NCBI GenBank assembly: GCA_963841935.1 | Contig: CAWJEP010000005.1 | Span: 230,003 to 268,473 of the forward strand | Source: an uncultured bacterium | GTDB taxonomy: Bacteria; Patescibacteriota; Minisyncoccia; Phycocordibacterales; UBA6065 | Reading direction: 5' to 3' | Length of the DNA stretch: 38,471 nucleotides | Part shown: positions 6,173-32,475 of the stretch, piece after piece | Numbering within the stretch: position 1 is the first letter of the stretch | Layout: each line of letters opens with the position of its first letter | Notes under the pieces: generated by a model | Told to the model about the DNA's origin: nothing | The model's input: only the letters and a program-made list of their open reading frames with translations | Databases searched by the model: none | Translations under genes and position numbers: made by a program

Positions 6173-6176
6173 ATCT

Positions 6177-7858: not shown

Positions 7859-7859
7859 T

Positions 7860-8459
7860 CTAAATGTGCGTCAAGTATATTGTCGACGGGGTAAAGTAGA
7901 TGCAATTACTACCCAAGGCCCATCCGATAGGTTGGATGACCTGGTCAGTGCCAGAGGGCTGAATCTGGGTAAGTGTACCGGAGCCCGTGGACACGTAAAG
8001 TAAACTGGCATTCCCCGGCCCGATTGTCCAATTCCAAGTGTCGACCCTTAAAACGCCTTGGACAAGAACTCTCACGCTGCCTGTTCCTGTATCGATTGCC
8101 AACGCCACGCAGGGAGAAGTCGCATTTGAACTGGCGTCAGCCGTACTCAGATGTCCGTTCGCGGTCATGAAAAGAGGCGCCCCGATGCCCACGTTATTCG
8201 TATCCACGGTGGCCATTATAATCAATCCGGACGCGGTATTATCGACTGTCGGCGTATTCATGAGTCTTATGCCGGCCACATTATTTATGGGTAATTCGCC
8301 CATATCCATGCGGAAGCGAGAAATTTTGATGGTTCTGGTTCCCACTTTCAGGTCCCCGCACCGAAGACAGGTAAAAAGAGAAGTGGGAACGTATTTTTCC
8401 TTATCAAATCCCAAAAGAGGAATCCATTTATGTCTTTTGCATTCTTTTTTTTCTTTCAT
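7860..8459 (-). CDS. Hypothetical protein: N-terminal Cys/His zinc-ribbon-like motif plus beta-rich Gly/Thr/Ser C-terminal domain
   Basis: 199-aa ORF: ECKRHKW...FTCLRCGD, followed by a low-complexity beta-rich region that ends LLYVSTGSGTLTQIQPSGTDQVIQPIGWALGSNCIYFTPS. Its stop lies 1 nt from the start of the GT2 gene at 7858. Confidence 0.55.
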   Translation of the reverse strand: MKEKKECKRHKWIPLLGFDKEKYVPTSLFTCLRCGDLKVGTRTIKISRFRMDMGELPINNVAGIRLMNTPTVDNTASGLIIMATVDTNNVGIGAPLFMTANGHLSTADASSNATSPCVALAIDTGTGSVRVLVQGVLRVDTWNWTIGPGNASLLYVSTGSGTLTQIQPSGTDQVIQPIGWALGSNCIYFTPSTIYLTHI

Positions 8460-14729: not shown

Positions 14730-14800
14730 CGGGGTGTAGTATAGTGGTAGTATACACGTTTCGGGTACGTGAGGCGGGAGTTCGATTCTCCCCTCCCCGA
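14730..14800 (+). tRNA. tRNA-Pro (anticodon CGG)
   Basis: Hand-folded cloverleaf. Acceptor CGGGGTG/CTCCCCG has one U:U mismatch at 6:67. Anticodon stem CACGT/ACGTG, loop TTCGGGT. T-arm GGGAG-TTCGATT-CTCCC. No encoded CCA. Confidence 0.8.
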
Positions 14801-14813
14801 CATGAGCAAACGA

Positions 14814-14887
14814 GGACGATTAGCTCAGCTGGTTAGAGCGCGCGATTCACATTCGCGAGGTCACTGGTTCGAACCCAGTATCGTCCA
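14814..14887 (+). tRNA. tRNA-Val (anticodon CAC)
   Basis: Acceptor GGACGAT/ATCGTCC. D-arm GCTC-AGCTGGTTA-GAGC. Anticodon stem CGCGA/TCGCG, loop TTCACAT. T-arm ACTGG-TTCGAAC-CCAGT. Confidence 0.9.
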
Positions 14888-14889
14888 CT

Positions 14890-14960
14890 GGGCCTATAGT
14901 CTAGTGGTACGACGCGTCATTCGCATTGACGAGGCACCGGTCCGATTCCGGTTAGGTCCA
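14890..14960 (+). tRNA. tRNA-Ala (anticodon CGC)
   Basis: Acceptor GGGCCTA/TAGGTCC with the G3:U70 alanine identity pair. Anticodon stem CGTCA/TGACG, loop TTCGCAT. T-arm ACCGG-TCCGATT-CCGGT, where the T-loop has C at the position normally occupied by U55. Confidence 0.75.
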
Positions 14961-14994
14961 CCGAATTATAAAATTAAATAATTCAAAAAATATT

Positions 14995-15486: not shown

Positions 15487-15489
15487 TTG

Positions 15490-15560
15490 TGGACCTAAGG
15501 GGAATCGAACCCCTACCTCATCCATGCCATGGATGCGTAATACCATTTTACTATAGGCCC
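15490..15560 (-). tRNA. tRNA-Ala (anticodon GGC)
   Basis: The reverse complement folds: acceptor GGGCCTA/TAGGTCC (G3:U70), anticodon stem CATCC/GGATG, loop ATGGCAT, T-arm AGGGG-TTCGATT-CCCCT. Confidence 0.85.
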
Positions 15561-15611
15561 TTGAGAGAAAAATCTTACATTATTTTTCTCTTTTTGGAAA
15601 ATTAAAAACTT

Positions 15612-15682
15612 TCGGGCTGCCGGGAGTCGAACCCGGACCGCACCCACCCCATGGGCGTATACTACCGCTATACTACAGCCCG
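15612..15682 (-). tRNA. tRNA-Pro (anticodon GGG)
   Basis: The reverse complement folds: acceptor CGGGCTG/CAGCCCG, anticodon stem CGCCC/GGGTG, loop ATGGGGT (G37), T-arm CCGGG-TTCGACT-CCCGG. Confidence 0.85.
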
Positions 15683-15699: not shown

Positions 15700-15825
15700 A
15701 CATTTCTAAAACGGTTGGGAAATAATTTTCTGTTCCAGAGTCGGAATGTCGACGTAAGCGGAAAGTTTCGGTTCTCTCTCCGCCAAATATATGAGAAGCC
15801 GAATCGTGGATTTTTCCGTCGGATG
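15700..15825. repeat. 126-bp near-identical direct repeat, copy 1 (3' end of DltD-like paralog 1)
   Basis: acatttctaaaacggttgggaaataattttctgttccagagtcggaatgtcgacgtaagcggaaagtttcgg[t]tctctctccgccaaatatatgagaagccgaatcgtggatttttccgtcggatg. It differs from copy 2 at one position. Confidence 0.9.
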
Positions 15826-16800
15826 AGACCCGTCGTAGAGCTCGCTGTCCGACGAACCGATTAGCGAAATATCGCGCAAGTCGTAAAAGCCGTAACCGTA
15901 TTTTGAAAATAGCGAGTTTAAAACATTCGGCACTTCCCTATACGTGGCGCCATGAATGTCATTCAACGACTCTAGCTTCTCGTAAACCTCCAGAGCGTAG
16001 GGAGACAAATATCCTATGACGTATATGTTTCTGGATTTGCACAGCGACAAAAATTCCTCGACGCGAGCGAGGTTTGCCTCCAATATGGAAGTCTCGTACT
16101 CCGTCGAACCCTGTATGTCCGACACGGTCTCCGCTATTTCGCTCGGAATGGTTTTTTGCACCTCTTGTATTTCGGCCGGCGTACCCCTGTCGAGACTGCC
16201 GTCGGCTCTATATCCGTGTCCAGATATAACGGCGTTGAGACCTATGTTGTCGTCGCTTTTCCTGCCCGCGAGAAATTTTTCAAGAGAAAAATAGCCGCTG
16301 AAATAATCCACGTAAAAGTCGCGCCATCCTGTTGTTATGAAGTAAGTAAACGGATTGTAAGTAAAAGAGTTTTCCGAAGCCAAATTGGTGCTCGTTAAAT
16401 AGCTGGAAGCGTCGAAGAGTATGATTTTCGGGTCGCTGCCACTGGGCAGAGCGTTTATGTACTGCGATAAATCATCGGCGTTGAGAGTGTAGTCAGCGGT
16501 ATAACCGGCGTTGTAGAAAGTGCCGGCCTTGAAAAAATCGGAATCGAACGTCAATGTTCTGGATGTTCCCACCACAATAACGTCCGATTTATGCGAAATC
16601 GTCCCGGCTAATTTGTACGGCTTGTCGGTAAAGGACGTGGCGCTCGAAAGATAGAGCACGTCGGGATTTTTTTCTTGAATGTTCACCACTTGTGACATTG
16701 GCATATATTCCCCGCTCATGACAAATATCACAAGCGGCGGCACGAAGAACAGAGATATCGGAATAACAAACAAGAGAGATTTGATAATGAAATTTTTCAT
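15706..16800 (-). CDS. DltD-like / SGNH-type extracytoplasmic acyl-transfer protein, N-terminal TM anchor (paralog 1)
   Basis: An in-frame ATG at 16800 gives 364 aa (MKNFIIKSLLFVIPISLFF...). Candidate nucleophile block VVGTSRTLTF and a C-terminal DxxH block (LYDGSHPTEKS). Size, single N-terminal TM and position downstream of an MBOAT gene match DltD/AlgJ-type partners. Confidence 0.6.
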   Translation of the reverse strand: MKNFIIKSLLFVIPISLFFVPPLVIFVMSGEYMPMSQVVNIQEKNPDVLYLSSATSFTDKPYKLAGTISHKSDVIVVGTSRTLTFDSDFFKAGTFYNAGYTADYTLNADDLSQYINALPSGSDPKIILFDASSYLTSTNLASENSFTYNPFTYFITTGWRDFYVDYFSGYFSLEKFLAGRKSDDNIGLNAVISGHGYRADGSLDRGTPAEIQEVQKTIPSEIAETVSDIQGSTEYETSILEANLARVEEFLSLCKSRNIYVIGYLSPYALEVYEKLESLNDIHGATYREVPNVLNSLFSKYGYGFYDLRDISLIGSSDSELYDGSHPTEKSTIRLLIYLAEREPKLSAYVDIPTLEQKIISQPF

Positions 16801-16801
16801 G

Positions 16802-16927
16802 ACATTTCTAAAACGGTTGGGAAATAATTTTCTGTTCCAGAGTCGGAATGTCGACGTAAGCGGAAAGTTTCGGCTCTCTCTCCGCCAAATATATGAGAAG
16901 CCGAATCGTGGATTTTTCCGTCGGATG
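16802..16927. repeat. 126-bp near-identical direct repeat, copy 2 (3' end of DltD-like paralog 2)
   Basis: Same sequence as 15700..15825, offset by 1102 bp, with a single t/c difference. Confidence 0.9.
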
Positions 16928-17926
16928 TTCCGAATCATACAATTCTGAATCGGAAGACCCTATGGCAGTTAAATTTCTCACGTCATAAAAATCGTACTTG
17001 TATTTCATGAAAAGCGGTTGGATGACGGATGGAGCATTTCTATATGTTTCGCCGTAGGAATTTTGCTCCGATTCCAAAGCGTCATACATTTCAACGGCGT
17101 AGGGAGATAGGTATCCTATGACATAAATATTTTTTGACTTGCAAAGAGCCAATAATTTATCTATCCCGGCAAGATTGCTTTCCGAAAGGGACGCGCCGTA
17201 ATCCAGAGAGGATTCTTGTCCCGCCTTGATGATCGACGTGTAATAAGATATTTCCGACGGAATGCCTTCCTGCATGGTTTGTATTTCTTCCGTTGTCCCC
17301 CTGTCCAAACTGCCGTCTTTTCTGAAGCCGGCTCGATGCAGGATGGCGTCAAGTCCTATGTTTTGATTATCTTTTTCCCCGCTGGCTTGGATCAAAGCGC
17401 CAATAGAAAATCGTCCATTTAGATAATCGGTATATATGTCGTGCCAACCGGACGTCAAAAAAAATGTGAGCGGATTATAAGATGTGACAATATCCGTTCC
17501 CAGCGCGTCAGGACTGTCTATTTTCAAATAACCGGACAAATCAAGAAGTATCAACTTGAGTTTGCTATCCGAAGACAAATCTTTCACGTACTCGTACATA
17601 TCGTTTGCGTTAAGAGTCACCCCTCCGGAATTGTAGAAAACTGTCGGGTCTTTAAAGAAACCGGACTGAAAGGTTACCGACCTGGACGTCCCGAGCACGA
17701 TTATTTCCGGGTCTTCCCGCTTGGCCGAAATGAGTTTGTAAAGCCATTCGGAATCCTTGGGAGACTCCGGCAGATAAAGAATATTGCTCTGACTTTGTTG
17801 CTGGCGATTTATGATGGTTGATAAGGGAAGATATTCTCTGTCGAGAAAAAATACCCCGAAAAATAAAAGAAAAAACAAGGCAATCGGGATACCGAACAAG
17901 AGACATTTGACTATAAAACTTTTCAT
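16808..17926 (-). CDS. DltD-like / SGNH-type extracytoplasmic acyl-transfer protein, N-terminal TM anchor (paralog 2)
   Basis: An in-frame ATG at 17926 gives 372 aa (MKSFIVKCLLFGIPIALFF...). Blocks LGTSRSVTF and LYDSEHPTEKS. It aligns with paralog 1 throughout, and the last 39 aa are identical. Confidence 0.6.
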   Translation of the reverse strand: MKSFIVKCLLFGIPIALFFLLFFGVFFLDREYLPLSTIINRQQQSQSNILYLPESPKDSEWLYKLISAKREDPEIIVLGTSRSVTFQSGFFKDPTVFYNSGGVTLNANDMYEYVKDLSSDSKLKLILLDLSGYLKIDSPDALGTDIVTSYNPLTFFLTSGWHDIYTDYLNGRFSIGALIQASGEKDNQNIGLDAILHRAGFRKDGSLDRGTTEEIQTMQEGIPSEISYYTSIIKAGQESSLDYGASLSESNLAGIDKLLALCKSKNIYVIGYLSPYAVEMYDALESEQNSYGETYRNAPSVIQPLFMKYKYDFYDVRNLTAIGSSDSELYDSEHPTEKSTIRLLIYLAEREPKLSAYVDIPTLEQKIISQPF

Positions 17927-17930
17927 TTTT

Positions 17931-19412
17931 TCAGAATTTAAAATAGATGAACGGCTCGGCACCCAGATAGCCGACTACAAGTATGCTAAAGACGAGTCCA
18001 TAATACGCGCTCCATCGCACTAGACGGCTTTTGTTTTCCAGAATAAATCTCGTGCCTTTTTTCGCCTGAAGATATTGGACGAATTCCATAAATATTATTG
18101 CGACTATTATAATGAGAAAGAATTTCGTCGTGATACCAAGACTGCTATAGCTGAAGATACTCGCGCGAGACGCGTATTCTTCAACCGGATGAGCTATCGC
18201 GTACCACGCCTTTCCGAAAACTTGAAAAGCCTGCGGCATGTCTGCCGCCCGGAAAAAAACAAGACTCACGGTAAAGAGAAAAAAAGTCACGCCGGTCTGC
18301 CATATTTGCCGCAAAGCTTTATGGTTGACCAGACGAGCGGCGCGCGAAATAAAATTTCGCGCGCTCGCCGTCCAGGAAGAAAAAATCATGTAGACGCCTT
18401 GGAGGGTTCCAAAGATTACGTATGTCCAGTTGGCTCCGTGCCAAAGACCTATCAAAACGAAGGTTATGAAAATACTCAAATATATGCGCGCCTTAGTTAT
18501 TTTTTTTCCGGCAAATGCCAATGGATAATAGAGATAATCTTTGAGCCAGCTCGATAGCGATATATGCCATCTCTGCCAAAGTTCCGCGATGGAACGAGAC
18601 GCGTACGGGCGTTCAAAGTTGTTGACCAAATCGTAACCGAAAACCAAAGCCGTACCAACGGCAATGTCGGAATAACCGGAAAAATCGCAGTAAATCTGGT
18701 AGGCGAAGAATACGGCGGCGATTATGACGCTCACGCCGTTTGTGCCGCTTATATTTGAATATATGTGGTCCACCAGAAGTCCTATTCTGTCCGCGATAAC
18801 CAGTTTTTTGAAAAAACCCCAGAGCATGAGTTCGAAACCCCTTCGGATTTTCGCGTAATCGAAAGAGTGCGATTCATGGAACTGGTGTAACAGCTGTTGT
18901 GGCCGCTCGATCGGACCGGCGACGAGCTGAGGAAAAAACATCACGTACAAAGCGTATATTCCGTAGTGCCGCTCCGGCTCCTGTTTGCCTTTGTAAACCT
19001 CAATGACGTAACTAAGACTTTGAAACACGTGAAATGAAAGTCCGAGGGGCAAAGCTATGTCCAAAAGAACCAAAGGATAATTCCAGTGGATGAGCTGGGC
19101 TATGACCGCCACGTTTTCGTTGAAGAAATTAAAATACTTGAAAAAAAACAAAGTGCCGAGATTGGCGATGATACTCATCACGAGAAAAATTTTTCTCCTG
19201 TGTCCGGTGGCTTTGGATATTTGGATTCCCAGGACATAGTCGACGGTTATGAGAAAAAACAGAATCAGAATAAATTTCGGAATGTAGGCCATGTAAAAAT
19301 AACAGCTGCCTAAAAGCAAAAGAAGCCAGCGGTAACGGTCTGGCACGACGGAATAATACAAAAAAAACATCACCACGAAGAAGACGAGGAATTGTAATGA
19401 ATCGAATGACAT
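17931..19412 (-). CDS. Membrane-bound O-acyltransferase (MBOAT; DltB/AlgI-like)
   Basis: 493-aa polytopic ORF. Hallmark motifs are SIAELWQRWHISLSSWLKDYLYYPL and VLIGLWHGANWTYVIFG, which contains the conserved His. Confidence 0.9.
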   Translation of the reverse strand: MSFDSLQFLVFFVVMFFLYYSVVPDRYRWLLLLLGSCYFYMAYIPKFILILFFLITVDYVLGIQISKATGHRRKIFLVMSIIANLGTLFFFKYFNFFNENVAVIAQLIHWNYPLVLLDIALPLGLSFHVFQSLSYVIEVYKGKQEPERHYGIYALYVMFFPQLVAGPIERPQQLLHQFHESHSFDYAKIRRGFELMLWGFFKKLVIADRIGLLVDHIYSNISGTNGVSVIIAAVFFAYQIYCDFSGYSDIAVGTALVFGYDLVNNFERPYASRSIAELWQRWHISLSSWLKDYLYYPLAFAGKKITKARIYLSIFITFVLIGLWHGANWTYVIFGTLQGVYMIFSSWTASARNFISRAARLVNHKALRQIWQTGVTFFLFTVSLVFFRAADMPQAFQVFGKAWYAIAHPVEEYASRASIFSYSSLGITTKFFLIIIVAIIFMEFVQYLQAKKGTRFILENKSRLVRWSAYYGLVFSILVVGYLGAEPFIYFKF

Positions 19413-19435
19413 AATGTATGTTTAGGGTAACGAAA

Positions 19436-20194
19436 TTATTTTATATTCAACTCAGGAGCGACAAATATTAGGAAATCGGCTTCTTTTCCAACGTTTGAAC
19501 AAAGGAGTGATACCGCCTCAGCCACGTCCGAGGCATCGGCCAATTTATTGTTCGGACTTTTCTTCATCGCCATTTCAATAAAGGCCTTCGGAATTGAACT
19601 GTTCATTCCTCCAGACATAAATCCCGGAGCGACAGCGTGTACGCGGACGCCATATGGAGCCAACTCTTCCCTAAAAATCGAAAGAGTCTCTTGAATCGCC
19701 GATTTGGCCGGAGCGTATGCTCCGAGACCTTGTGCCAAAGAAGCGGAAGCAAGCGCGGCAGTCGTTATGCCCACCATGACTCCAGCTCCGTGTATTTTTT
19801 GAGCTCTCGCGCACACCGAGAGAAAATTGAAACATCCGAAGAAATTTACTTCGAATTGTTTCCTCGCTTCTTCGGCGGAAGAAAGATAAAGACGTTTTCG
19901 GTCAGGGCCCGTGCCGGCGGCACAGATAGAAACATAAATTGGACCCATGTCTTTCTCGATAGCGGCAATAGTTTTATCGACTTCCTCGGCAGAACAAATG
20001 TCGCATATATATGTCTTATGACCGGAACCGGGAAGCGTCGTCAAGAAATCACCTATAACGGACTTTGAGAATCCGTGTATGAGGGCCGCGACGCGGAAAC
20101 CATCAGCGGCAAGCTTCTCTATAATCGCCTTCCCGACATAACCGCTCGCGCCGGCGACGACTGCGACTCTTTTTTTTGAATCGGTTTTTGACAT
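19436..20194 (-). CDS. Short-chain dehydrogenase/reductase (FabG-like)
   Basis: An in-frame ATG at 20194 gives 252 aa: MSKTDSKKRVAVVAGASGYVGKAIIEKL (TGxxxGxG-type Rossmann motif), ...YAPAKSAIQ (YxxxK), ...VRVHAVAPGFM. The track ORF start 20323 would overlap the upstream gene. Confidence 0.85.
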   Translation of the reverse strand: MSKTDSKKRVAVVAGASGYVGKAIIEKLAADGFRVAALIHGFSKSVIGDFLTTLPGSGHKTYICDICSAEEVDKTIAAIEKDMGPIYVSICAAGTGPDRKRLYLSSAEEARKQFEVNFFGCFNFLSVCARAQKIHGAGVMVGITTAALASASLAQGLGAYAPAKSAIQETLSIFREELAPYGVRVHAVAPGFMSGGMNSSIPKAFIEMAMKKSPNNKLADASDVAEAVSLLCSNVGKEADFLIFVAPELNIK

Positions 20195-20204
20195 TTTATG
20201 ACGG

Positions 20205-20621
20205 TTATAAAACCTGAACCAGAGCGTTACCGGAGAGAACCTCCTTATTATCCACCAACACCGATATTTCCACCTCAAGTGTCTTGGTGGAAATGCTCTT
20301 CGAAACGACCTTGCCCGTGACAACCATTCTGTCGCCTATGAATACGGGATTTCTAAAAACCAAATCTTGCTTTAGATAAAGACATCTCTTCCCCGGCAAA
20401 TACATTCCCACCACGCGCGAACACAGCGAACCAACCAGCATGCCGTGGACGAGTCTGCGCTTAAACTTGGTTTTCTCCGCGTACACATCGTCTAGATGAA
20501 GCGGATTCTCGTCTCCCGAAAGTTTGGCGAAATCCGTTACATCGCTTTCGGTAAAAGTCCGTTCGAAGGAAATTGAATCGCCGATTTTGATATCGTCGAT
20601 TGATAAATCTCTGGCTTTCAT
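20205..20621 (-). CDS. MaoC-like (R)-specific hotdog-fold dehydratase/hydratase
   Basis: 138-aa ORF: FAKLSGDENPLHLDDVYAEKTKFKRRLVHGMLVGSLCSRVVG, the MaoC dehydratase signature. ATGA overlap with the ACP gene. Confidence 0.85.
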   Translation of the reverse strand: MKARDLSIDDIKIGDSISFERTFTESDVTDFAKLSGDENPLHLDDVYAEKTKFKRRLVHGMLVGSLCSRVVGMYLPGKRCLYLKQDLVFRNPVFIGDRMVVTGKVVSKSISTKTLEVEISVLVDNKEVLSGNALVQVL

Positions 20622-20848
20622 ATTTTTATACCCTTAGCTCGAAGCATTTTCTTTACGTCGCCTATGGAACCGGCGTGAATGACCTCGTCCATGCCCAGAG
20701 AAACGTCAAACTCCCTCTCCAATTCGGCGATAAAAAGCAAATAATTCATCGAATCCCAATCGGGAATGTGTTTCGAGGTCATGTCGTCGCGGATGTCGGC
20801 TTCTTTGACCTTGAACATCTTGGAAACTATCTCGTTGAATTTATTCAT
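20618..20848 (-). CDS. Acyl/peptidyl carrier protein (phosphopantetheine attachment DSM motif)
   Basis: 76-aa ORF: ...HIPDWDSMNYLLFIAELEREFDV... The Ser lies in a D-S-(L/M) context at the start of helix 2. Its size is like ACP/DltC. Confidence 0.8.
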   Translation of the reverse strand: MNKFNEIVSKMFKVKEADIRDDMTSKHIPDWDSMNYLLFIAELEREFDVSLGMDEVIHAGSIGDVKKMLRAKGIKI

Positions 20849-21884
20849 AAATTGTCTTTATCCACGAAGGCGAATGTGGTGATTTATTTATTTTTGTTTC
20901 CTTGTTTTTGAAATTTTTCTCGACAAATTCTTTTGCCGGAGCGTTTTTCGGCGTTTCTTCGAAAGCAATGGAGATTTTCGAGATTTTTTCTTTCAAAGCC
21001 TGCTTGCGTATGACCGCGAAAAAAGCATCTTCCACGCCCCTGACAAATGCTCTGCAGCTGAGTAGCATGGAAGAAATCCGCCAAGAATCTTTTGATTTGT
21101 CCGTCAGAGCGAAAGCGATGATTCCGTAATCTCCGAATTTGTCGGACAACTTTCCGAAAAACACGTGATGATCCGGACTTTCAATATAGCGCCTCAAGTC
21201 TCCTTCCGTCAAAGGTTTTTTCATCGTGTTGAATTGGTTGGTTTTTTCCGTGAGCTGCGAGAGGCGCGGCAAGCACGAATCATCGTCGCAAAAAACTTCA
21301 AGCTCCAAAGAAAGACTTTTTAAAAAATCTTCTTTAGAAACGAATTTTTTCTCTTCTTCTTTTCTCAAACGTTCCGTGACGTAGAGATTGCCGCGCATTT
21401 TGTCTTCGTCGGTGATGAAACTGGAATCAAAAACGCCCAAAGAATTTAAAAACCTGGCATACTCCGCCGGGTCTTTCGGCAAATCGGGCGTGAGAACTTC
21501 CGGAAGCATGGCGCGGACCGCCGCGCGGTTCGTCTCGTCGTCGTCGAGAAAGACCATGGAGTCGAGACCAATATTTAATTCTCTCGCCAATTCTTTTAGG
21601 TTGTCAACTTTGTCGTTCCAGTTGATGCGCGCGGCGGCGAAATGTTTTTCCCTCAAAATCATGTTCGGATGCGTGCGGATGACCTGCCACGCGTCGTCGG
21701 GGTTGTTGCGGCTGTTAATCGCCAGAATTACTCCGCGGTCAAAATGGTCCATTATCGCCTGCTGAAAAGCCAGAAAACCGTTGCCTGGCGGTTGAAGAGA
21801 CAAAGCCAAGTTTTCCATGCCGTCTTCGCCGACAACTCCTCCCCAGAGCGTATTATCAAGGTCTAGTACTAAGCATTTTTTCAT
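20841..21884 (-). CDS. HAD-superfamily subfamily IIIC / FkbH-like loader enzyme
   Basis: An in-frame ATG at 21884 gives 347 aa. HAD motif I is CLVLDLDNTLWGG. Then ILAINSRNN...INWNDKVDNLKELARELNIGLDSMVFLDDD, and a C-terminal GNAT-like half with the SCR motif (MLLSCRAFVRGVED) characteristic of FkbH-type glyceryl-S-enzyme formation. Confidence 0.75.
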   Translation of the reverse strand: MKKCLVLDLDNTLWGGVVGEDGMENLALSLQPPGNGFLAFQQAIMDHFDRGVILAINSRNNPDDAWQVIRTHPNMILREKHFAAARINWNDKVDNLKELARELNIGLDSMVFLDDDETNRAAVRAMLPEVLTPDLPKDPAEYARFLNSLGVFDSSFITDEDKMRGNLYVTERLRKEEEKKFVSKEDFLKSLSLELEVFCDDDSCLPRLSQLTEKTNQFNTMKKPLTEGDLRRYIESPDHHVFFGKLSDKFGDYGIIAFALTDKSKDSWRISSMLLSCRAFVRGVEDAFFAVIRKQALKEKISKISIAFEETPKNAPAKEFVEKNFKNKETKINKSPHSPSWIKTIYE

Positions 21885-21888
21885 ATAT

Positions 21889-22230
21889 TTAGGCGACGGC
21901 AACGGCGACGGCGAATTTTCCGGCATGAGTTATGGAAATGTCCACGGGCAATTTTTTATTGCTTTTCCAGACTTCGGGTTTGCCGTTTTTGGCGCGGCGG
22001 ATTTCGAGCGACACGAAGGGAAACTTGTCTGTGCCCAAAGCTTTGCTCGCCGCCTCCTTGGCGGCGAAAGTTCCAGCCAAATGCTCTTCCGGACGTTTGT
22101 AACCGAAGCAATAAACTATTTCTTTTTTCGTAAACAATTTATTCAACAAACGCGATTGAGACTTGCTTTTGAGTCCGCGAAATTTCGCGACTTCCGTCAT
22201 GTCCACGCCGATGACGTATTTTTTCGACAT
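21889..22230 (-). CDS. acpS: Holo-[acyl-carrier-protein] synthase (4'-phosphopantetheinyl transferase)
   Basis: VIGVDMTEVAKFR...FTKKEIVYCFG...LAGTFAAKEAASKALGT...LEIRRAKNGKPEV...DISITHAGKFAVAVAVA, a canonical AcpS layout. I place the start at ATG 22230 (MSKKYVIG). Confidence 0.85.
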   Translation of the reverse strand: MSKKYVIGVDMTEVAKFRGLKSKSQSRLLNKLFTKKEIVYCFGYKRPEEHLAGTFAAKEAASKALGTDKFPFVSLEIRRAKNGKPEVWKSNKKLPVDISITHAGKFAVAVAVA

Positions 22231-22355: not shown

Positions 22356-23050
22356 TTATTTATTCTGGTCTGATCTTCGAACGTATATCCACCAAACGAC
22401 AACCGCCGCCACGAGGATAAGCAGTATCCACCACAACCAAGAGTAACTCGAAGCGCCTGCTCCGGCCACGGCCGCTACTTGGGTAATCGGTGCGGATTGC
22501 GTCACTTGCGTAGGCGTATTCGTCGCTACTTGAACTACCGGTGCCGTTGTCTTTGGCGTAACAGCGGCCGCGGCGGATACAACAAATGTCGTTCCGTTTC
22601 CGTTGACAACATTTTGGCTGTTGGCTTCAAATGCCAGCGAACTATTCCCTATCTTGATAGCTCCATTTCCGGAATTTTTTGCGTAGAAAGTGATGGTTCC
22701 AAATGTTGTGGCTCCTGAAAATCCATCTGGATATCCGGCGGTTTTCACGAGTATGCCATTAGTATTATTTGTCAAATCATAGCCTGTTTGCGTTAGTGCC
22801 ATCCAATTGCTTCCCAAAGTGAAAGCCGTCACCTCAAATTATTGGCCGGAAAATCAACCTCCAACTTTTCCGCGTAGTTACTCACGCCTTGAGGATCCAC
22901 GGCGACTGTGACAGTGAACGATTTTCCCGCAACAACGCTAACATTCGTCGGAGAAAGTGACGCCGTCGTCGCGGCCAATGCCGGTATCGCTAAAGCGAAG
23001 ACTCCGATGATTGCCACCGCTATACCCACTATTGATGTGTATTTTTTCAT
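22356..23050 (-). pseudogene. Cohesin-domain-like, C-terminally membrane-anchored protein split by a -1 frame break at about 22829..22834
   Basis: ORF 22829..23050 carries a signal peptide plus ASLSPTNVSVVAGKSFTVTVAVDPQGVSNYAEKLEVDFPANNLR*. ORF 22356..22832 (GTG start, frame -1) carries VTAFTLGSNW...GTITFYAKNSGNGAIKIGNSSLAFE..., a Thr/Pro/Ala linker and a TM anchor WLWWILLILVAAVVVWWIYVRR. Joined together they read as one continuous cohesin-like beta-sandwich. Confidence 0.55.
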
Positions 23051-23055
23051 GTTTT

Positions 23056-25632
23056 TTATTTAGCCCAGTTGGTCATTAACCATACGAAGTCTTGAATACC
23101 GACAACCGCGTCACCGCTAAAGTCAGCGGCATTTCCGATTCCCGTCTGACCCCAATTAGCCATTAGGAGCACGAAATCCGAGATACCGACATTGGTCGCG
23201 GCAACATTGGAAGATCCGCCGCCACTACTGTAAAAGTGAACAGTGTTAACGGGGCTTGCCGGAGTTGGAACCGGTGTCTCTGTGTAAGTTACGAATGTCG
23301 AGAAGTGCTTCGTCCAGACGATGAGGTCGCTTCCTGAATCGATTTTACAAGACGCGCCTGCGGCAAGAGAGGCATTCTCTGTCGTTTGGTCGTTTGCCGC
23401 GCACGTGTCCGTAATTTCAGTGAACACGTTCGCGTTGTTATACCAGCCAGCAAGCGTTCCTGCCTGACCTGCGAAGGTGAGCTCTACGGCATTGTTGAAG
23501 GTGAGATCGCTCTCGCTTGAGCCGACGGTGGCTGCGGACGTCACTGTCGTGTCAAAGCCCGGAACCACAACGGTCGGTGTCGTTGCCGGCGGAGTCGGTG
23601 CAGAGATAACACCATCCCACGTTGCATTGCCGGTTGCCGTCGTCCCGGAAGGAATGACCGCCGTAATGTTGATATTTGTATTTGCAGTACTCGTGCCGAT
23701 TAGTGTCGTGATACTCGGAAGCGTCGCTGTCTGGTTGCCATTACTGTCCGGTGTCGTAGAGCTCTGAAGCGTCGTCATTCCTGCGTCGGTGTACCAGGGC
23801 GAGACGTTGATGGCGCCACCGCCGGGACTTGCAGTGAACGAGAACGGGTTCGTGGTACTAGTGTTCCAATAGTTGGATGAGGCATCGATATTCGTTGGCA
23901 GGCTCGAGGTGACCCCATCTTGCATGGATGAACTGTCGAAGGAGTTGTGATTGAGGCTGACCGATGCCGAATCAGGATTTGAATCGAAGTTGACTGCCGT
24001 AGCGTAGCCACCCAAAGCGGTAAAGTTGCTGAAAGAGTTGTTCTGAACAACCGCGTTCGGCGTGTCCCCCTCGAGTCCGAGTCCATGGGCGTAATAGCCC
24101 GAAAGATCAGTCACTGAGTTACCTGTAATCTGCGCAGCAGCTATTGAACCACCGACTTTTGCACCGTAATTAAGGAGGATGCCGTAAGCAATCTTGCCTG
24201 TAGGCCACGTCGACGTGTTGTCAGAAACATTCGAGATAGTGTTGTTGCTGATAACCAAGCCCGACAGGATGCCGGTAGCGTTGGAATCTCCAATGCCGAT
24301 CGCACCATTCGAATTCTCCAAGTTAGCGGTGTCACCAACGCCGTTGATGGTGTTGTTGCTGATGGTAACACCAGAAACGCTGCCAGTCGTGTGACCCTGG
24401 AAGTAAATGCCGTAGGCATTGTTCGGAATCAGAGGGTTCGTAGCAGCGAGGGTCGTACCGATGTCAGTAACCGAGTTGTTGGTAACCGATACGTTGCCGA
24501 CACCGTTGATGAGGATTCCGAAACCGCCGCTTGGATTCGTGACCGTGAATCCCGAAAGATTAGTCGACGCAGCATTGATTTGGACTTCGCCATTGATTGT
24601 CGTGTCGGTAGCGCCTGCGCCCTTGAGTGTGATCCCCGTCGGAATCGTTATGTTTTCGTCATAGGTCCCCGCGCTGACAACAATCGTGTCGCCAGAAGAG
24701 GCAGCATTAACCGCAGCTTGAATAGTTGCAAATGGACAGGTCTCAGAGCCATTGTTCGAATCGTTACCACTTGTTGATGATACGAAAACAGAAGTACCAA
24801 CAGTGCCAGTGCAAGAAGTAGGAGTCGAAGTGGTAGGAATCGTAACGGTATTGGCATCGAGCGTCACTTGAGTTTGTGCCAATGCTCTACCATTCAGTAC
24901 TGCACCAGTTTGCATTACAATCTCTGTTTGATCTAGAATATTTCCTACAAACGTGGATGTCGTTTGAAGTGTCGTCGCGCCAGCTACTGCCCAGAAGACG
25001 TTTGCAGATACTGCGCCACCGGTTAGAAGAACACTCGTGGCGGAGCTTATATTGAGAGTTCCCGGTACGATGAATATCCACACATCGGTTGGACCACCAT
25101 TGAGGGTGACATTACCTGTTATTTTCACATTGCCGGGACCAGAAAACGTATAGACACCGGGAGAGAGTGTAAGTCCGGTAAGGTCGCAAGTGCCAGCAAC
25201 ACATTGAGCCGGCGCGGCGACCGAAAGATTTGTTTCATTGACCGATCGGCCAGTGGCATCAGTGTATGCCGCCGCCATATCGGATACAGCCGTACCCAAT
25301 GTGGTCGGAGTGGGAGTCGTGTAGTCGGCCGCGTACAACTTTCCAACTACGTAGATCGATGTTGAAAATTGATTCGAGCCATCCATTGTTTCTGAAAATC
25401 CTGTTAGGGCGGTGTGGTCAATCGGACTTACCCCAATATCTCCGGTAATCAAAGTGGTCCCGGAGGTTGAGATCCCCGATTTTGATAAAATCGCGAAGTT
25501 GCCCGATGTCCCAAGATCGACTGGTGCTGGACTTGCGAACGCGAATGCATTTCCCGCAAACGCGAAAAGGGCGAACGCGACAATACCGCTTACGACGGCC
25601 AGCTTGTAGGCTGACGTTATTGAATATTTCAT
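23056..25632 (-). CDS. Large secreted surface protein: ice-binding-like (DUF3494) domain, right-handed beta-helix repeats, dockerin-like C-terminus
   Basis: Signal peptide (start taken at MKYSIT, ATG 25632). VDLGTSGNFAILSKSGISTSGTTLITGDIGVSPI...TAVSDMAAAYTDATGRS...LSPGVYTF...TDVWIFIV...NVFWAV...GNILDQTEIVMQTGAVLNGRALAQTQVTLDANTVTIP matches the IBP/DUF3494 fold pattern. Repeated NNS/T-V/I-T/S-x-V/I-G units are PbH1-like. The C-terminal pair is GISDFVLLMANWG / GIQDFVWLMTNWA. Confidence 0.8.
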   Translation of the reverse strand: MKYSITSAYKLAVVSGIVAFALFAFAGNAFAFASPAPVDLGTSGNFAILSKSGISTSGTTLITGDIGVSPIDHTALTGFSETMDGSNQFSTSIYVVGKLYAADYTTPTPTTLGTAVSDMAAAYTDATGRSVNETNLSVAAPAQCVAGTCDLTGLTLSPGVYTFSGPGNVKITGNVTLNGGPTDVWIFIVPGTLNISSATSVLLTGGAVSANVFWAVAGATTLQTTSTFVGNILDQTEIVMQTGAVLNGRALAQTQVTLDANTVTIPTTSTPTSCTGTVGTSVFVSSTSGNDSNNGSETCPFATIQAAVNAASSGDTIVVSAGTYDENITIPTGITLKGAGATDTTINGEVQINAASTNLSGFTVTNPSGGFGILINGVGNVSVTNNSVTDIGTTLAATNPLIPNNAYGIYFQGHTTGSVSGVTISNNTINGVGDTANLENSNGAIGIGDSNATGILSGLVISNNTISNVSDNTSTWPTGKIAYGILLNYGAKVGGSIAAAQITGNSVTDLSGYYAHGLGLEGDTPNAVVQNNSFSNFTALGGYATAVNFDSNPDSASVSLNHNSFDSSSMQDGVTSSLPTNIDASSNYWNTSTTNPFSFTASPGGGAINVSPWYTDAGMTTLQSSTTPDSNGNQTATLPSITTLIGTSTANTNINITAVIPSGTTATGNATWDGVISAPTPPATTPTVVVPGFDTTVTSAATVGSSESDLTFNNAVELTFAGQAGTLAGWYNNANVFTEITDTCAANDQTTENASLAAGASCKIDSGSDLIVWTKHFSTFVTYTETPVPTPASPVNTVHFYSSGGGSSNVAATNVGISDFVLLMANWGQTGIGNAADFSGDAVVGIQDFVWLMTNWAK

Positions 25633-25823
25633 ATTTTTATGAGTTAGCTGTTGCATCTCGCTGCCGTTCATGCAGCTACTTTATTACAACTTATAATAAA
25701 CATATACCGCTGGACTAATAGTTTTATTGCCAACTCGGACACTATGGTACTTCCCCATCAAAATGTCAACGAGTCAAAGGGGGTAACTGGTGGACAAAAA
25801 GTGGATAAACAAAAAGACAGCTG

Positions 25824-26910: not shown

Positions 26911-28199
26911 TCAGAAGAGGTTCCTAATGCCCGCGCCGCGAAGCTTCCTGTGATACGCAATGGCGAATCTGTGAGCTTCGGCGTTGGCGAGCAAAATAGA
27001 TTTTTCCAAATTTTTGTCCGCGTTTTTCATTCCGAGAATAGCGCGAGCTTTGTGGCGGTCGTCTTTTACAACGGAAACAATGGTCGGCAACGGCGAGAGA
27101 CGGGCATTTTCTCGCTTGTGCGCTTCGGTCGGACTTAGCGCGCTCGAAAATGCTCCGTCTCTCCGCTAGCCGTTATTGCCTTGCGAGCGACATTCAGTTG
27201 TCCTTTTCCGCCATCAATGACAATCAATTCGGGCATTCCCCATTCCGGATGATTGGCGCGGCGGCGCAAGATTTCGGCGAGACTTTTCGTGTCATTGTTG
27301 CCGATATTTTTGTCCAAACGGAATTTTCGATACTCACTAAACGCCCTTGCGCCGTCTATGATGACGGTCATTACGCCAACGCTTTCCTTTCCCGACGTGT
27401 GTGCGACGTCGTAAGCTTCGATACGCAGTTGCGGCGCGCCCAAAGGGCGCGCCGCCTCATCCTCTTTTATAAGTGCGATGTCCTGAATGTGCTCAAGAGC
27501 GAAAATTTTCCTCTTTATTTCACCGGCTTTTTCGAATTCGCGGGCTTTGGCGAAAGCTTTCATTTCTTTTTGGAGCGATTTTATGACCGCGCCCTTTTTT
27601 CCTTGGAAGAAGAGCCGGATGTGGCGGATATTTTTCAAATATTCCTTTCGCGACTCTTCGCTCGCCGTCTCCGGAGAAAGTCCAATCTGACGATAAAACG
27701 GCGACTGTCTTTTTTGATACGAACGCTCGTCGAGAAACGGAAACATTTTCCGAATAATGCGAAGCGATTCTCTCAAAGCACCGCCGGATGTGAATGGTCC
27801 GAAAGAATCCTGTATTTTGTACGGCGTCGACGCAAGATTTCTTTCCCTCACGACCACAATTCTCGGAAATTTTTCCTTCGTAATCAAAACGAAATTGAAA
27901 CTCTTGTCGTCTTTTTCCTGAACGTTGTAATAAGGCTGAAGTTTCTTTATAAGATTGGCTTCGAGAATGACGGCTTCCAGCACGCTATCAGTCTCTTGCC
28001 ATTTTATCGTCGCGGATTTCGTCACCATATCGACGATTCTCGGCCCGCGTGTGACGATAATATCCGCAGAAAAATAACTCCGCACGCGGTCCTTAAGCGA
28101 TGTCGCTCGGCCGACATACAGAGTCTTTTTCCCTTGTTTCCAGAAATAGACTCCTGGGCCATCAGGGATTTTGAGTTTTATTAAATCTCGAATTTTCAT
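26911..28199 (-). pseudogene. uvrC: Excinuclease ABC subunit C, frame-broken; lacks the C-terminal (HhH)2 region
   Basis: ORF 27135..28199 carries the GIY-YIG domain (GVYFWKQGKKTLYVGRATSLKDRVRSYF), a UVR-like helix region and IVIDGGKGQLNVARKAI, then stops. The next conserved UvrC block (LPTIVSVVKDDRHKARAILG...LLANAEAHRFAIAYHRKLR) is encoded in another frame, 27165..26914, with its stop at 26911..26913. Confidence 0.8.
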
Positions 28200-31670: not shown

Positions 31671-31829
31671 AGTAAAAAGAAAATCATTGAGATTAAAACA
31701 TGCGCAACCGCGCGCTTTATGTGAGAGGATCTCACATAATAAGCTTGTTTTAAATCTCTAGACTCCGCCGTGTATTATATATGGTGTGGATTATTTGTCA
31801 AATCTATTTTCTTATATCCCTCAATTTCC

Positions 31830-32081
31830 TCACAAATCTTTATACGCGCTGTCTCGTTTCATAACGAGAAGCACGTAAATCAAATCTCCGGAAACTTGAA
31901 AAATAATTCTCATATCCCCTATTCGAAAACGATATGCGTCATAGCCGACGAGTGGTTTCGCGTGCGCCAAAGGATCAGCCAAAGAAGCGAACCAGCGCAT
32001 TTTTAATGCGATTCTTTTTTGAACAGTTTTTGACAGAGCTTCAAACTGTTTCTCCGCCGCCGCGGTATAAAATATTTTCAT
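31830..32081 (-). CDS. RelE/ParE-family type II toxin
   Basis: 83-aa ORF: MKIFYTAAAEKQFEALSKTVQKRIALKM...YRFRIGDMRIIFQVSGDLIYVLLVMKRDSAY, the typical plasmid-stabilisation / ParE-RelE pattern. It lies 3 nt downstream of a small antitoxin-like ORF. Confidence 0.75.
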   Translation of the reverse strand: MKIFYTAAAEKQFEALSKTVQKRIALKMRWFASLADPLAHAKPLVGYDAYRFRIGDMRIIFQVSGDLIYVLLVMKRDSAYKDL

Positions 32082-32084
32082 AGT

Positions 32085-32318: not shown

Positions 32319-32324
32319 AGAAAT

Positions 32325-32352
32325 AGTATATACCCTATATATACGCTGTCAA
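32325..32352 (-). promoter_or_regulatory. Candidate sigma70-type promoter of the TA operon (TTGACA-N16-TATACT)
   Basis: The minus strand reads ttgaca gcgtatatatagggta tatact atttct ATG. The -10 ends 6 nt before the antitoxin ATG, which would give a near-leaderless transcript. Sequence match only. Confidence 0.35.
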
Positions 32353-32392
32353 TTATATTACCTTCGTATATCCCAAAATATTTACAAAAATA

Positions 32393-32453: not shown

Positions 32454-32475
32454 TAAAAAGACTATAAGTGATAGA

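Follow-up and report, generated by a model that had tools for sequence, protein, structure and literature searches.

The 38,471 nt stretch of DNA analysed here (the window) carries, on its minus strand between positions 15706 and 22230, an eight-gene operon (Table 1) which on balance we believe encodes an envelope-polymer O-acylation system of the MBOAT-SGNH type that draws its acyl groups from a dedicated carrier protein and not from acyl-CoA. If this is true, the operon is a second relative of the D-alanylation (Dlt) pathway to depend on a carrier protein; in it a glycolytic intermediate would be turned into a C3 acyl group on a small carrier and passed to a cell-surface polymer by a membrane acyltransferase. 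A literature search found no paper describing such an FkbH/ACP-MBOAT system, in agreement with the remark in the first-pass annotation that it knew of no characterised MBOAT system with this donor chemistry.

The gene order is acpS, fkbH, acp, maoC, sdr, mboat, X1 and X2, and all eight ORFs are present. The junctions are gaps of 4 (acpS/fkbH), 10 (maoC/sdr), 23 (sdr/mboat), 4 (mboat/X1) and 7 nt (X1/X2) and overlaps of 8 (fkbH/acp) and 4 nt (acp/maoC), which bears out the eight tightly packed, co-directional genes of the first-pass annotation. The motifs it quoted (DLDNTLW, SCR, DSM, RWHISL, WHG, GTSR, DSEH and DGSH) are all found in the translations, and profile-HMM searches agree with its AcpS, FkbH, PP-binding (marginally), MaoC, SDR and MBOAT assignments. 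Judging from sequence, no part of the system is missing and each could plausibly be catalytically competent; the analyses below directly support the gene identities, the conservation of catalytic residues and of synteny, and the predicted folds.

Table 1. Genes of the putative acylation operon
Gene	Product	Position	Strand	Basis
acpS	holo-ACP synthase, 113 aa	21889..22230	-	TIGR00516, PF01648
fkbH	short-form FkbH, 347 aa, HAD-IIIC + GNAT-like domain	20841..21884	-	TIGR01686, AlphaFold2
acp	acyl carrier protein, 76 aa	20618..20848	-	PF00550 (marginal), PDB sequence matches
maoC	MaoC-type single hot-dog dehydratase, 138 aa	20205..20621	-	PF01575
sdr	SDR, FabG-like reductase, 252 aa	19436..20194	-	adh_short_C2
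mboat	MBOAT, 493 aa	17931..19412	-	PF03062
X1	membrane-anchored SGNH-like predicted acyltransferase partner, 372 aa	16808..17926	-	AlphaFold2, Foldseek
X2	tandem paralogue of X1, predicted second transferase, 364 aa	15706..16800	-	alignment with X1

The AcpS protein matches TIGR00516 with 67.4 bits (cutoff 59.8) and PF01648 with 47.6 bits; its gene adjoins the FkbH gene in all ten CPR-type loci, and the enzyme would attach phosphopantetheine to the carrier encoded in the same operon. TIGR01686 covers residues 2–326 of the 347 in FkbH (296 bits, cutoff 146.65), and D8, D10, T12, S58, N60, K92, D114, D115 and S276-C277-R278 are at least 94% conserved in 48 homologues that range down to ~28% identity. 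The SCR cysteine, Cys277, is present in 98% of these and precedes an RxxGxG-like pantetheine-binding motif; the window protein has a valine at the position where 94% of the homologues carry Gly281. In the AlphaFold2 model the N-terminal half (low confidence, pLDDT ~46–69) matches the HAD domain of BF1531 (3SLR) and the C-terminal half (mostly pLDDT >85) matches GNAT acetyltransferases. The full FkbH-model match, the GNAT-fold domain and the conserved cysteine rule out a plain HAD phosphatase and uphold the FkbH-type loader recognised in the first-pass annotation. The established product of the FkbH family is glyceryl-S-ACP, and the short-form FkbH is predicted to make it from 1,3-bisphosphoglycerate. 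The carrier protein match is marginal (PF00550, 21.6 bits against a cutoff of 20.8) and the generic ACP NCBIfam models fall below their cutoffs; among PDB sequences it matches type II ACPs best. In 67 homologues from the retrieved loci, nearly all of them next to an FkbH gene, W31 and S33 reach at least 90% conservation, and phosphopantetheine is predicted to attach at Ser33 of WDSM.

The MaoC protein matches MaoC_dehydratas (PF01575) with 74 bits, and its hydratase-2 motif G36-D37-x-x-P40-x-H42 is conserved among 32 homologues. The SDR matches adh_short_C2 with 97 bits, FabG-type NCBIfam models score below their cutoffs, and G15/G18/G21 and Y160-x3-K164 are conserved. MaoC is predicted to dehydrate glyceryl-S-ACP to enol-pyruvoyl/pyruvoyl-S-ACP, which the SDR would then reduce to lactyl-S-ACP. 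That a DH and a KR turn glyceryl-S-ACP into lactyl-S-ACP is established for FR901464 and lankacidin (He et al. 2014, as cited in PMC4765723). Because FkbH, dehydratase and ketoreductase make up this characterised route, the transferred C3 acyl group is, by analogy, probably lactyl, although the window MaoC, a single hot-dog protein, differs from the PKS-type DH of the precedent. The glycerate-derived C3 unit that the first-pass annotation put in place of D-alanine is thus retained as a prediction and narrowed to a probable lactyl group.

The same machine might carry another cargo, such as a glyceryl (2,3-dihydroxypropanoyl), pyruvoyl or other C3 derivative, with MaoC and the SDR in another role, for example in epimerisation, in editing or in oxidation of the 3-OH. 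This would agree with the established FkbH product, with the glyoxalase/VOC protein that replaces MaoC in other FkbH-ACP cassettes, and with the MBOAT-linked operons that have no SDR (L116 and the metagenome loci L039, L054, L058 and L075); since such operons exist, lactyl cannot be the universal product. A glycerate-derived acyl group is also documented on a bacterial glycan, as Pse5(di-O-methylglyceroyl), di-O-methylglyceroyl-pseudaminic acid, on C. jejuni flagellin (PMC3068675). However, MaoC and SDR genes always lie between acp and mboat in CPR-type loci with adequate flanks (5/5), both enzymes retain their catalytic motifs, and the sole FkbH+DH+KR combination known to be characterised yields lactyl-S-ACP (PMC4765723); we consider a different cargo rather unlikely.

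The MBOAT protein matches PF03062 with 83.5 bits. Its best PDB sequence match is DltB (6BUG, 1.6e-26), with WHG aligned to WHG, and His325 of this motif is the catalytic-type histidine; against the DltB equivalog TIGR04091 it scores 152.6 bits, far under the cutoff of 375. Hydrophobic segments 419–451 and 471–491 lie past the DltB-homologous core, and the C-terminus is FIYFKF (including Tyr490), the fused FXYXXF acyl-shuttle motif of PatA/AlgI-type MBOATs (defined in PMC12148441). The sequence F[IVF]YF[KQR]F terminates all intact full-length MBOAT orthologues that adjoin FkbH cassettes. Experiments have established how this shuttle works in DltX/DltB/DltD and in PatA/PatB (PMC12148441). Given the two extra C-terminal helices with the fused motif, we reject a DltB-like architecture for this MBOAT. 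Because a carrier-protein operon here includes an MBOAT with a fused PatA/AlgI-type shuttle, the system is therefore a hybrid of a Dlt-style carrier and a PatA-style shuttle. The idea in the first-pass annotation that it keeps the DltC/DltB/DltD logic is right as to a carrier-fed, Dlt-style scheme, but not as to the MBOAT architecture or to the partners, which are not DltD by sequence.

X1 and X2 have no significant Pfam or NCBIfam match (the sole match is DUF1574, E = 0.009). DltD models do not match them, and matched only one of 12 relatives (E = 0.006), so we reject DltD family membership by sequence. The X1 AlphaFold2 model (pLDDT 87) has DltD (6PFX) as its top, though weak, Foldseek match in the PDB (E = 5e-4, TM ~0.39), followed by SGNH esterases, and G79, S81, N99, D331 and H334 are invariant in the X1/X2 family alignment. 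X1 has one N-terminal hydrophobic segment, and by the positive-inside rule (K2 and K7 before the helix, LDRE after it) its main domain is likely outside the membrane and not in the cytoplasm. These features fit the single-TM, SGNH/DltD-type proteins first proposed. By hhalign (probability 97.9%), X1 and the partner protein that accompanies an unlinked Nitrospirota MBOAT are homologues. The catalytic order of X1/X2 (Ser first, DxxH last) is like that of DltD and canonical SGNH enzymes; in AlgX/AlgJ the order is permuted. X2 is ~53% identical to X1, and by analogy with AlgJ + AlgX (PMC4148444), which the two paralogues recall, the pair suggests two acceptor positions or polymers. We note that the last ~120 nt of X2 differ from their X1 counterpart at one position only.

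The order acpS-fkbH-acp-maoC-sdr-mboat-partner is kept in Jorgensenbacteria, Sungbacteria, other Patescibacteria and metagenome-assembled genomes, and in more distant loci the cassette recurs with shuffled gene order. Each of the five CPR-type loci whose flanks extend 5 kb or more on either side has all six core genes. Three MBOAT-first look-ups, picked on contig size alone, all found the cassette, and 20 contig sizes (a proxy only for co-location) are common to the top-120 FkbH and top-120 MBOAT lists. The arrangement is more than chance, since genomes independent of one another carry this gene set in an unchanged order. The operon is common in Patescibacteria (CPR), not a rarity, and usually lies within glycan-synthesis clusters (glycosyltransferase, methyltransferase, NDP-sugar, Wzm/Wzt and TagF-like); the FkbH, ACP, MBOAT and SGNH-like co-occurrence that the first-pass annotation proposed to look for is found in the same order in many of these genomes.

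It is conceivable that two unrelated modules share one glycan cluster, the MBOAT/SGNH pair being an acetyl-CoA O-acetyltransferase and AcpS-FkbH-ACP-MaoC-SDR serving a transferase elsewhere, for example a cytoplasmic one. PatA-type MBOATs with the fused FXYXXF have been shown to use acetyl-CoA, in pathways described without a carrier protein (PMC12148441). Moreover, MBOATs ~50% identical to that of the window (Eubacterium, Nitrospirota, Kapaibacterium) have an SGNH-like partner only, and neither FkbH nor ACP lies within 8 kb of them; a small neighbour-joining tree places them among the linked CPR MBOATs, and no donor-specific residue signature splits linked from unlinked among the MBOATs compared (the sole candidate, F160 versus Y, involves only 3 unlinked sequences). 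FkbH-ACP pairs also work with other partners, such as a GNAT in a Paenibacillus nonulosonic-acid cluster, and because most longer-form FkbH-ACP pairs have no nearby MBOAT (just 3 of the 17 adequately flanked loci have one), the cassette can serve transferases other than MBOAT. On the other hand, the linkage is tight, with fixed order and near-zero gaps across divergent Patescibacteria, and a divergent MBOAT clade (31–34% identity to the MBOAT of the window) keeps its linkage to FkbH-ACP-MaoC-acpS in spite of several gene orders. The operon itself encodes no other acyltransferase, and a change of donor needs little alteration because acyl-CoA and acyl-ACP offer the same phosphopantetheine thioester. 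We regard two separate modules as distinctly unlikely. A fragment of a secondary-metabolite (polyketide, tetronate, methoxymalonyl-ACP) or lipid pathway is highly improbable: an FkbH, an ACP, a dehydratase and a ketoreductase are typically found with PKSs, but no KS, AT, adenylation, condensation or thioesterase domain was found in the 38 larger ORFs scanned (most, not all, of those listed for the 38-kb window) or in the called genes of related loci, and the constant neighbours are MBOAT, SGNH-like ectoprotein and glycan-synthesis genes. The first-pass annotation had likewise excluded a PKS/NRPS fragment.

For the favored carrier-fed O-acylation system we infer the donor, acyl group and acceptor as follows. 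AcpS would convert the carrier to its holo form, and FkbH would take 1,3-bisphosphoglycerate from glycolysis to form a 3-phosphoglyceryl thioester on Cys277, which its HAD domain would dephosphorylate before the glyceryl group is moved to the carrier's phosphopantetheine arm. MaoC would then remove the 3-OH to give enol-pyruvoyl- and then pyruvoyl-S-ACP, and the SDR would reduce the 2-keto group to give lactyl-S-ACP, following FR901464/lankacidin starter-unit logic. Synteny suggests an ACP-to-MBOAT hand-off, in which the MBOAT would accept the acyl thioester at the cytoplasmic face and use His325 to shift the acyl group onto its own Tyr490 (the FIYFKF shuttle) at the outer face; Ser81 of X1/X2 would accept it there, and a surface glycopolymer would then be esterified.

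The operon resembles the Dlt system of teichoic acid D-alanylation (DltA, DltC, DltB, DltX and DltD) in its small carrier, predicted to be phosphopantetheinylated and charged in the cytoplasm, its MBOAT with a conserved histidine (DltB being the best PDB sequence match), its putative tyrosine shuttle as acyl relay, and its predicted membrane-anchored SGNH-type final transferase (~370–390 aa, Ser...DxxH, with DltD the top Foldseek match). It differs in having predicted FkbH loading from a glycolytic acyl phosphate and on-carrier tailoring (MaoC, SDR) in place of a DltA-type adenylase, a carrier that is not DltC-like, an MBOAT below the DltB equivalog cutoff, partners unmatched by DltD models, and a shuttle motif that the MBOAT itself carries, on two additional helices, and not a DltX microprotein. 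Because the predicted cargo is a hydroxy acid and not an amino acid, no positive charge would be added. With PatA/PatB (peptidoglycan), AlgI/AlgJ/AlgX/AlgF (alginate) and WssH/WssI (cellulose) it shares an MBOAT of ~490 aa with a fused C-terminal FXYXXF, a separate SGNH-like transferase (here predicted to be extracytoplasmic) and placement in polysaccharide gene clusters. Those systems are described as using acetyl-CoA without a carrier protein (PMC12148441), whereas here the MBOAT's operon also encodes a dedicated AcpS, a carrier, a loader and two tailoring enzymes.

Natural-product pathways of the FkbH type (methoxymalonyl-ACP, tetronates, FR901464/lankacidin) also have an FkbH, here well above the family cutoff, with a dedicated ACP, and in FR901464/lankacidin a dehydratase and ketoreductase accompany them. 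The operon proteins are instead free-standing, without PKS or NRPS, with a single hot-dog MaoC and FabG-like SDR in place of PKS DH/KR domains, and the acyl group is predicted to end up, via the MBOAT, on a cell-surface polymer. The window FkbH has no N-terminal FkbH_N domain (PF21211), which is present in the ~580-aa long form of locus L040. Cassettes of the nonulosonic-acid/glycan type (Paenibacillus sp. EC2-1, locus L008) likewise have an FkbH-ACP pair among sugar-modification genes; because they carry VOC/glyoxalase and GNAT genes in place of MaoC, SDR, MBOAT and SGNH, their gene content points to N-acylation of a nucleotide sugar in the cytoplasm and not to O-acylation outside it. The C. 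jejuni di-O-methylglyceroyl modification is, we presume, possibly linked to an FkbH-like gene as well.

The eight genes of the operon are consecutive minus-strand ORFs in the order acpS, fkbH, acp, maoC, sdr, mboat, X1 and X2, the last two encoding paralogous, putatively SGNH-like membrane-anchored partners of the MBOAT. This is the gene set of the first-pass annotation; its family assignments are upheld by profile searches, and all of the motifs that it quoted are found in the ORF translations. Neighbouring genes of the operon overlap by up to 8 nt or are at most 23 nt apart, and the boundaries are taken from gene spacing only because a promoter/terminator scan scored the region no higher than shuffled sequence. 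Besides the glycan genes in the table, the window encodes TatC, YchF, a flavodoxin-like protein, G6PD, an ice-binding-like surface protein, Ddl, UvrABC, Tgt, FKBP and a LOG-family protein, and an Rfam scan of it finds six tRNAs and nothing else. A scan of 38 larger ORFs of the window turned up no ketosynthase (KS), acyltransferase (AT), adenylation (AMP-binding), condensation or thioesterase domain, and on this ground we reject a PKS/NRPS fragment, as had been argued from the sequence at the outset.

Features of the operon, the window and the homologous loci fetched for comparison (L numbers)
Feature	Location	Strand	Details
Operon, eight ORFs	window 15706-22230	-	
AcpS		-	TIGR00516, 67.4 bits (cutoff 59.8)
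FkbH domain		-	TIGR01686, 296 bits (cutoff 146.65), end-to-end match
Carrier protein		-	PF00550, 21.6 bits vs 20.8, marginal
MaoC		-	PF01575, 74 bits
SDR		-	97 bits (profile search)
MBOAT		-	PF03062, 83.5 bits vs 27
X1	window 16808-17926	-	372 aa
X2	window 15706-16800	-	364 aa
Near-identical ends of X2 and X1	window 15706-15825 and 16808-16927	-	
FkbH residue 281	window 21042-21044	-	Val
Methyltransferases, RmlD, two GT2 glycosyltransferases	window 522-8459		
tRNA genes downstream of X2	window 14730-14962 and 15489-15682	+ and -	(+) Pro-CGG, Val-CAC, Ala-CGC; (-) Ala-GGC, Pro-GGG
871-aa protein region	window 22356-25671		PF11999 (214 bits) and DUF1565
uvrA and uvrB	window 28196-30834 and 33314-35659		
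Low-G+C stretch	window ~31700-33300		G+C 0.37 vs ~0.47 for window
Operon region on a contig from a close relative	L004 20-3178		
SDR-less operon	L116 5215-10671		
FkbH-ACP cassettes with VOC/glyoxalase protein	L008 3527-14585; L040 5081-17823; L083 16520-17926		long-form FkbH with FkbH_N, GNAT

The TIGR01686 match of the putative loader covers its residues 2-326 and profile positions 3-319 of 323, and the protein also scores 71.5 bits against the HAD-IIIC model TIGR01681 (cutoff 35.75). Among 48 homologues, down to ~28% identity, the HAD motif residues D8, D10, T12, S58, N60, K92, D114 and D115 are at least 94% conserved and S276-C277-R278 is present in 98%, the lone exception being a masked sequence; C277, which we take to be the catalytic Cys of the FkbH family, is the only cysteine conserved at that level. 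The sole PDB match by sequence is the HAD domain of the uncharacterised protein BF1531 (3SLR), which the low-confidence N-terminal half (pLDDT ~46-69) of an AlphaFold2 model (mean pLDDT 77) also resembles structurally. The C-terminal half, mostly above 85, is modelled as a GNAT fold that matches GCN5-type acetyltransferases. In the family consensus, SCRVFGRGVE, the Cys directly precedes an RxxGxG-like motif; the RxxGxG motif of GNAT enzymes binds pantetheine pyrophosphate, and the modelled domain fits acyl hand-over to a phosphopantetheine arm. The full-length FkbH match and the conserved Cys before such a motif in a GNAT-type domain thus set this 347-aa protein apart from plain HAD phosphatases, in line with the first-pass annotation, and by its sequence it is a bona fide FkbH-family member, used outside polyketide biosynthesis, with a predicted loading activity that would turn 1,3-bisphosphoglycerate into glyceryl-S-ACP. 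It has no N-terminal FkbH_N domain (PF21211), which is present in the ~580-aa long form of locus L040. We note that it reads SCRAFVRGVE around residue 281, with Val at a position that is Gly in 94% of the 48 homologues.

Conservation of S33 of the carrier protein is at least 90% across 67 homologues that the fetched loci encode, and the PDB matches of this protein by sequence are type II ACPs. The hydratase-2 Asp/His motif of the MaoC protein, G36-D37-x-x-P40-x-H42, is kept in 32 homologues, and the SDR retains its glycine-rich loop and YxxxK. From 2,3-dihydroxypropanoyl-S-ACP a 3-hydroxyacyl-thioester dehydratase produces the pyruvoyl-S-ACP enol, which a ketoreductase converts to lactyl-S-ACP. 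DH-KR proteins are described in a review as turning glyceryl-S-ACP into lactyl-S-ACP for the FR901464 and lankacidin starter units (He et al. 2014, as cited in PMC4765723). The free-standing FkbH/MaoC/SDR set reproduces this logic, and lactyl is for that reason our best guess, by analogy, for the cargo of the operon. Several linked operons (those with an FkbH-ACP cassette near the MBOAT) contain no SDR (L116, L039, L054, L058 and L075), and at L116 and similar loci acpS, a long-form FkbH, ACP and MaoC genes are followed directly by the MBOAT; these variants may export pyruvoyl or another C3 unit, or their reductase may be encoded elsewhere. In further FkbH-ACP cassettes a VOC/glyoxalase protein takes the place of MaoC, and the C3 product probably differs between systems.

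The closest solved relative of the MBOAT is DltB (6BUG; 1.6e-26, by sequence), and His325 of the window's MBOAT, in a WHG that aligns with the catalytic WHG of DltB, is invariant in a 20-sequence alignment. The MBOAT scores 152.6 bits against the DltB equivalog TIGR04091, below the cutoff of 375, and extends about 100 aa beyond the DltB-homologous matched region, with hydrophobic segments at 419-451 and 471-491. The extreme C-terminus is FIYFKF, whose F488 and Y490 are invariant in the 20 sequences, and F[IVF]YF[KQR]F ends every intact full-length orthologue that adjoins an FkbH cassette. FXYXXF is known as the "acyl shuttle" motif; it lies on the microprotein DltX in the Dlt pathway and is fused C-terminally, on two additional helices, in PatA, AlgI and related MBOATs, and its Tyr is acylated and then passes the acyl group to the SGNH partner (PMC12148441). 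The same paper describes the non-Dlt MBOAT/SGNH pathways as users of acyl-CoA, and so without a carrier protein, and states that Dlt is the only MBOAT/SGNH system that has one.

X1 and X2 are ~53% identical, and G79, S81, N99, D331 and H334, a GTS(R)...DxxH pattern, are invariant in both and in their relatives. DltD is the top PDB structural match of the X1 AlphaFold2 model (pLDDT 87), at a modest level (E = 5e-4, TM ~0.39), and the other PDB structural matches are solely SGNH esterases and acetyltransferases. Profile searches return no significant family match for X1 or X2, DltD models of Pfam and NCBIfam included, and PF04914 (DltD) matches one of 12 X relatives (E = 0.0056). The original description of this pair as SGNH/DltD-like therefore holds at the level of fold, through a weak top match to DltD, and fails as a sequence family assignment. 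Two lysines lie before the single N-terminal hydrophobic segment of X1 and LDRE lies after it, so that by the positive-inside rule the N-terminus is predicted to be inside and the domain outside. An exhaustive profile search (E <= 1e-3) places 4031 cluster representatives in the X family, for which Pfam offers weak DUF1574, GDSL or DltD hints only; the family is large and effectively unmodelled, and the idea that X1 is a rare protein, based on 13 matches in a first search, was dropped as a word-index artefact. In all fetched loci X-like ORFs were found only beside an MBOAT. Over their final ~120 nt X1 and X2 are identical except at one position, in contrast to much greater divergence in the ~70 aligned bases before that stretch; this suggests that the 3' ends underwent gene conversion recently, or possibly that the assembly collapsed them.

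More than 6700 FkbH relatives are found, the best 120 of which are 63-73% identical and, where named, are all labelled Patescibacteria group, Sungbacteria or Jorgensenbacteria; the best MBOAT matches give the same taxonomic picture. Neighbourhood look-ups find acpS-fkbH-acp-maoC-sdr-mboat in this order, with a gene for a 317-389-aa protein without Pfam match next to it downstream, in Candidatus Jorgensenbacteria (a 635-kb contig), Candidatus Sungbacteria, two other Patescibacteria assemblies and three more large contigs chosen from the MBOAT list on size only, so the co-occurrence of FkbH, ACP, MBOAT and partner recurs across Patescibacteria genomes. An Adlerbacteria genome has the MBOAT upstream instead. 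All six core genes are present in five of five CPR-type (Patescibacteria) loci that were retrieved through FkbH and have at least 5 kb on each flank, and 20 contig sizes are common to the best-120 FkbH and best-120 MBOAT lists, a rough proxy for co-location. A second MBOAT clade, 31-34% identical to that of the window, still adjoins FkbH-ACP-MaoC-acpS in several gene orders. From this recurrence across genomes, in a divergent clade and in shuffled orders, the linkage of FkbH cassette and MBOAT is real and old and no chance juxtaposition. The usual surroundings of the operon are glycan-synthesis clusters with glycosyltransferases, methyltransferases, NDP-sugar enzymes, Wzm/Wzt, a TagF-like protein and NeuB.

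The proposed flow from carrier protein to MBOAT, Tyr shuttle, SGNH protein and polymer is that of Dlt, and to this extent the Dlt-like logic first proposed for the operon stands. As a Dlt operon, however, it fails on every count: there is no DltA-type adenylase (neither the 38 larger ORFs scanned in the window nor the related operons encode an AMP-binding domain), no DltC or DltD match and no separate DltX microprotein with FXYXXF, and the MBOAT falls below the DltB cutoff. With the PatA/AlgI/WssH class it shares a conserved-His MBOAT, a C-terminal FXYXXF on two extra helices and an adjacent Ser/Asp/His SGNH partner, but unlike that class it co-encodes a carrier system. We therefore regard the operon, by its gene content, as a hybrid of a Dlt-style carrier and loader with a PatA/AlgI-style MBOAT in which the shuttle is fused, and the co-encoded carrier, AcpS and loader argue against a carrier-free acyl-CoA donor. 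No FkbH/ACP-fed MBOAT system was found in the literature, in agreement with the first-pass annotation; most subscription journals were outside the scope of this search, so this is no proof. The papers that came up for FkbH together with MBOAT concern the aeruginosin/suomilide clusters, presumably cyanobacterial NRPS clusters.

The most far-reaching reading, to which we give slightly less than an even chance, is that Patescibacteria and some other uncultured lineages attach lactyl, or a different C3 group derived from glycerate, in ester linkage to a glycopolymer of the cell surface by a second, evolutionarily independent carrier-dependent MBOAT-SGNH pathway. FkbH would draw the acyl group directly from glycolytic 1,3-bisphosphoglycerate, and the group would be tailored on the carrier and relayed through the Tyr shuttle fused to the MBOAT. 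The rival view that the MBOAT and its partner are an ordinary acetyl-CoA O-acetyltransferase, with the cassette serving another enzyme, draws on unlinked MBOATs of ~50% identity in Eubacterium, Nitrospirota and Kapaibacterium, which have an SGNH-like partner only: no FkbH or ACP was found near them, the small ORFs beside them (L112-L114) have no ACP similarity, and the Nitrospirota partner belongs to the X family (hhalign probability 97.9%). A small neighbour-joining tree places the unlinked MBOATs within the linked CPR sequences and does not separate the two groups, and no residue signature distinguishes them; the only candidate for a donor-specific signature, F160 versus Y, compares 17 linked with 3 unlinked sequences, too few of the latter to mean anything. 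Against this, the linkage is tight and repeatedly preserved, the operon contains no other transferase, and acyl-CoA and acyl-ACP present an identical pantetheine thioester, and on these grounds we consider a two-module arrangement improbable.

If carrier-fed esterification is correct, PatA/AlgI-type MBOATs are not confined to acyl-CoA donors, and a lineage about whose cell-surface chemistry next to nothing is known has an envelope modification that is widespread but has gone unrecognised. The existence of a second carrier-fed MBOAT/SGNH system whose shuttle is fused would mean that the type of donor can be separated from the architecture of the shuttle, making MBOAT donor recognition directly testable by comparison. 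Through the operon, glycolysis would supply envelope decoration, with no need for ATP-dependent activation or a pool of acyl-CoA. This would be an economical arrangement for organisms of minimal metabolism that have no fatty-acid synthesis, and it would explain why such organisms retain AcpS and an ACP. The predicted chemistry is ester-bound lactate or glycerate on Patescibacteria cell-surface polymers.

The FkbH-ACP cassettes in other glycan clusters, including nonulosonic-acid clusters, point to a general, largely unrecognised role of FkbH in glycan acylation outside natural products. The second cassette type, with long-form FkbH, VOC/glyoxalase and GNAT proteins, lies in Paenibacillus sp. 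EC2-1 (L008) within a nonulosonic-acid cluster with PseB-like, NeuB, CMP-transferase, PglD-like and aminotransferase genes. Two metagenome loci also have a VOC-type cassette in glycan clusters, one of them with a DUF4910/DUF2172 aminopeptidase-like protein. The Campylobacter jejuni flagellin glycan carries glycerate-derived acyl groups, and C. jejuni Cj1295 has been described as having an aminopeptidase-like domain (PMC3068675). By analogy, this suggests that VOC/GNAT-type cassettes may N-glyceroylate nonulosonic acids.

Directly downstream of X2, five tRNA genes flank a 163-aa ORF with no family match. Directly upstream of the operon is an 871-aa ice-binding-like protein, followed by 73-aa and 158-aa ORFs with hydrophobic, membrane-anchor-like stretches; all three are probably cell-surface proteins. 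The low-G+C stretch contains no ORF of at least 110 aa and no Rfam match. uvrA and uvrB each appear to be split, with UvrA domains over overlapping 711-aa and 273-aa ORFs and UvrB over 441-aa and 290-aa ORFs, and these may reflect frameshifts, pseudogenes or assembly errors. At L004 the MBOAT is in at least four ORF fragments, some of them up to 94% identical to that of the window, MaoC abuts the MBOAT with no SDR between them, there is a single X gene, and, as in the window, genes for G6PD and a flavodoxin follow downstream; the state of this locus is probably due to assembly indel errors, with real decay the lesser possibility.
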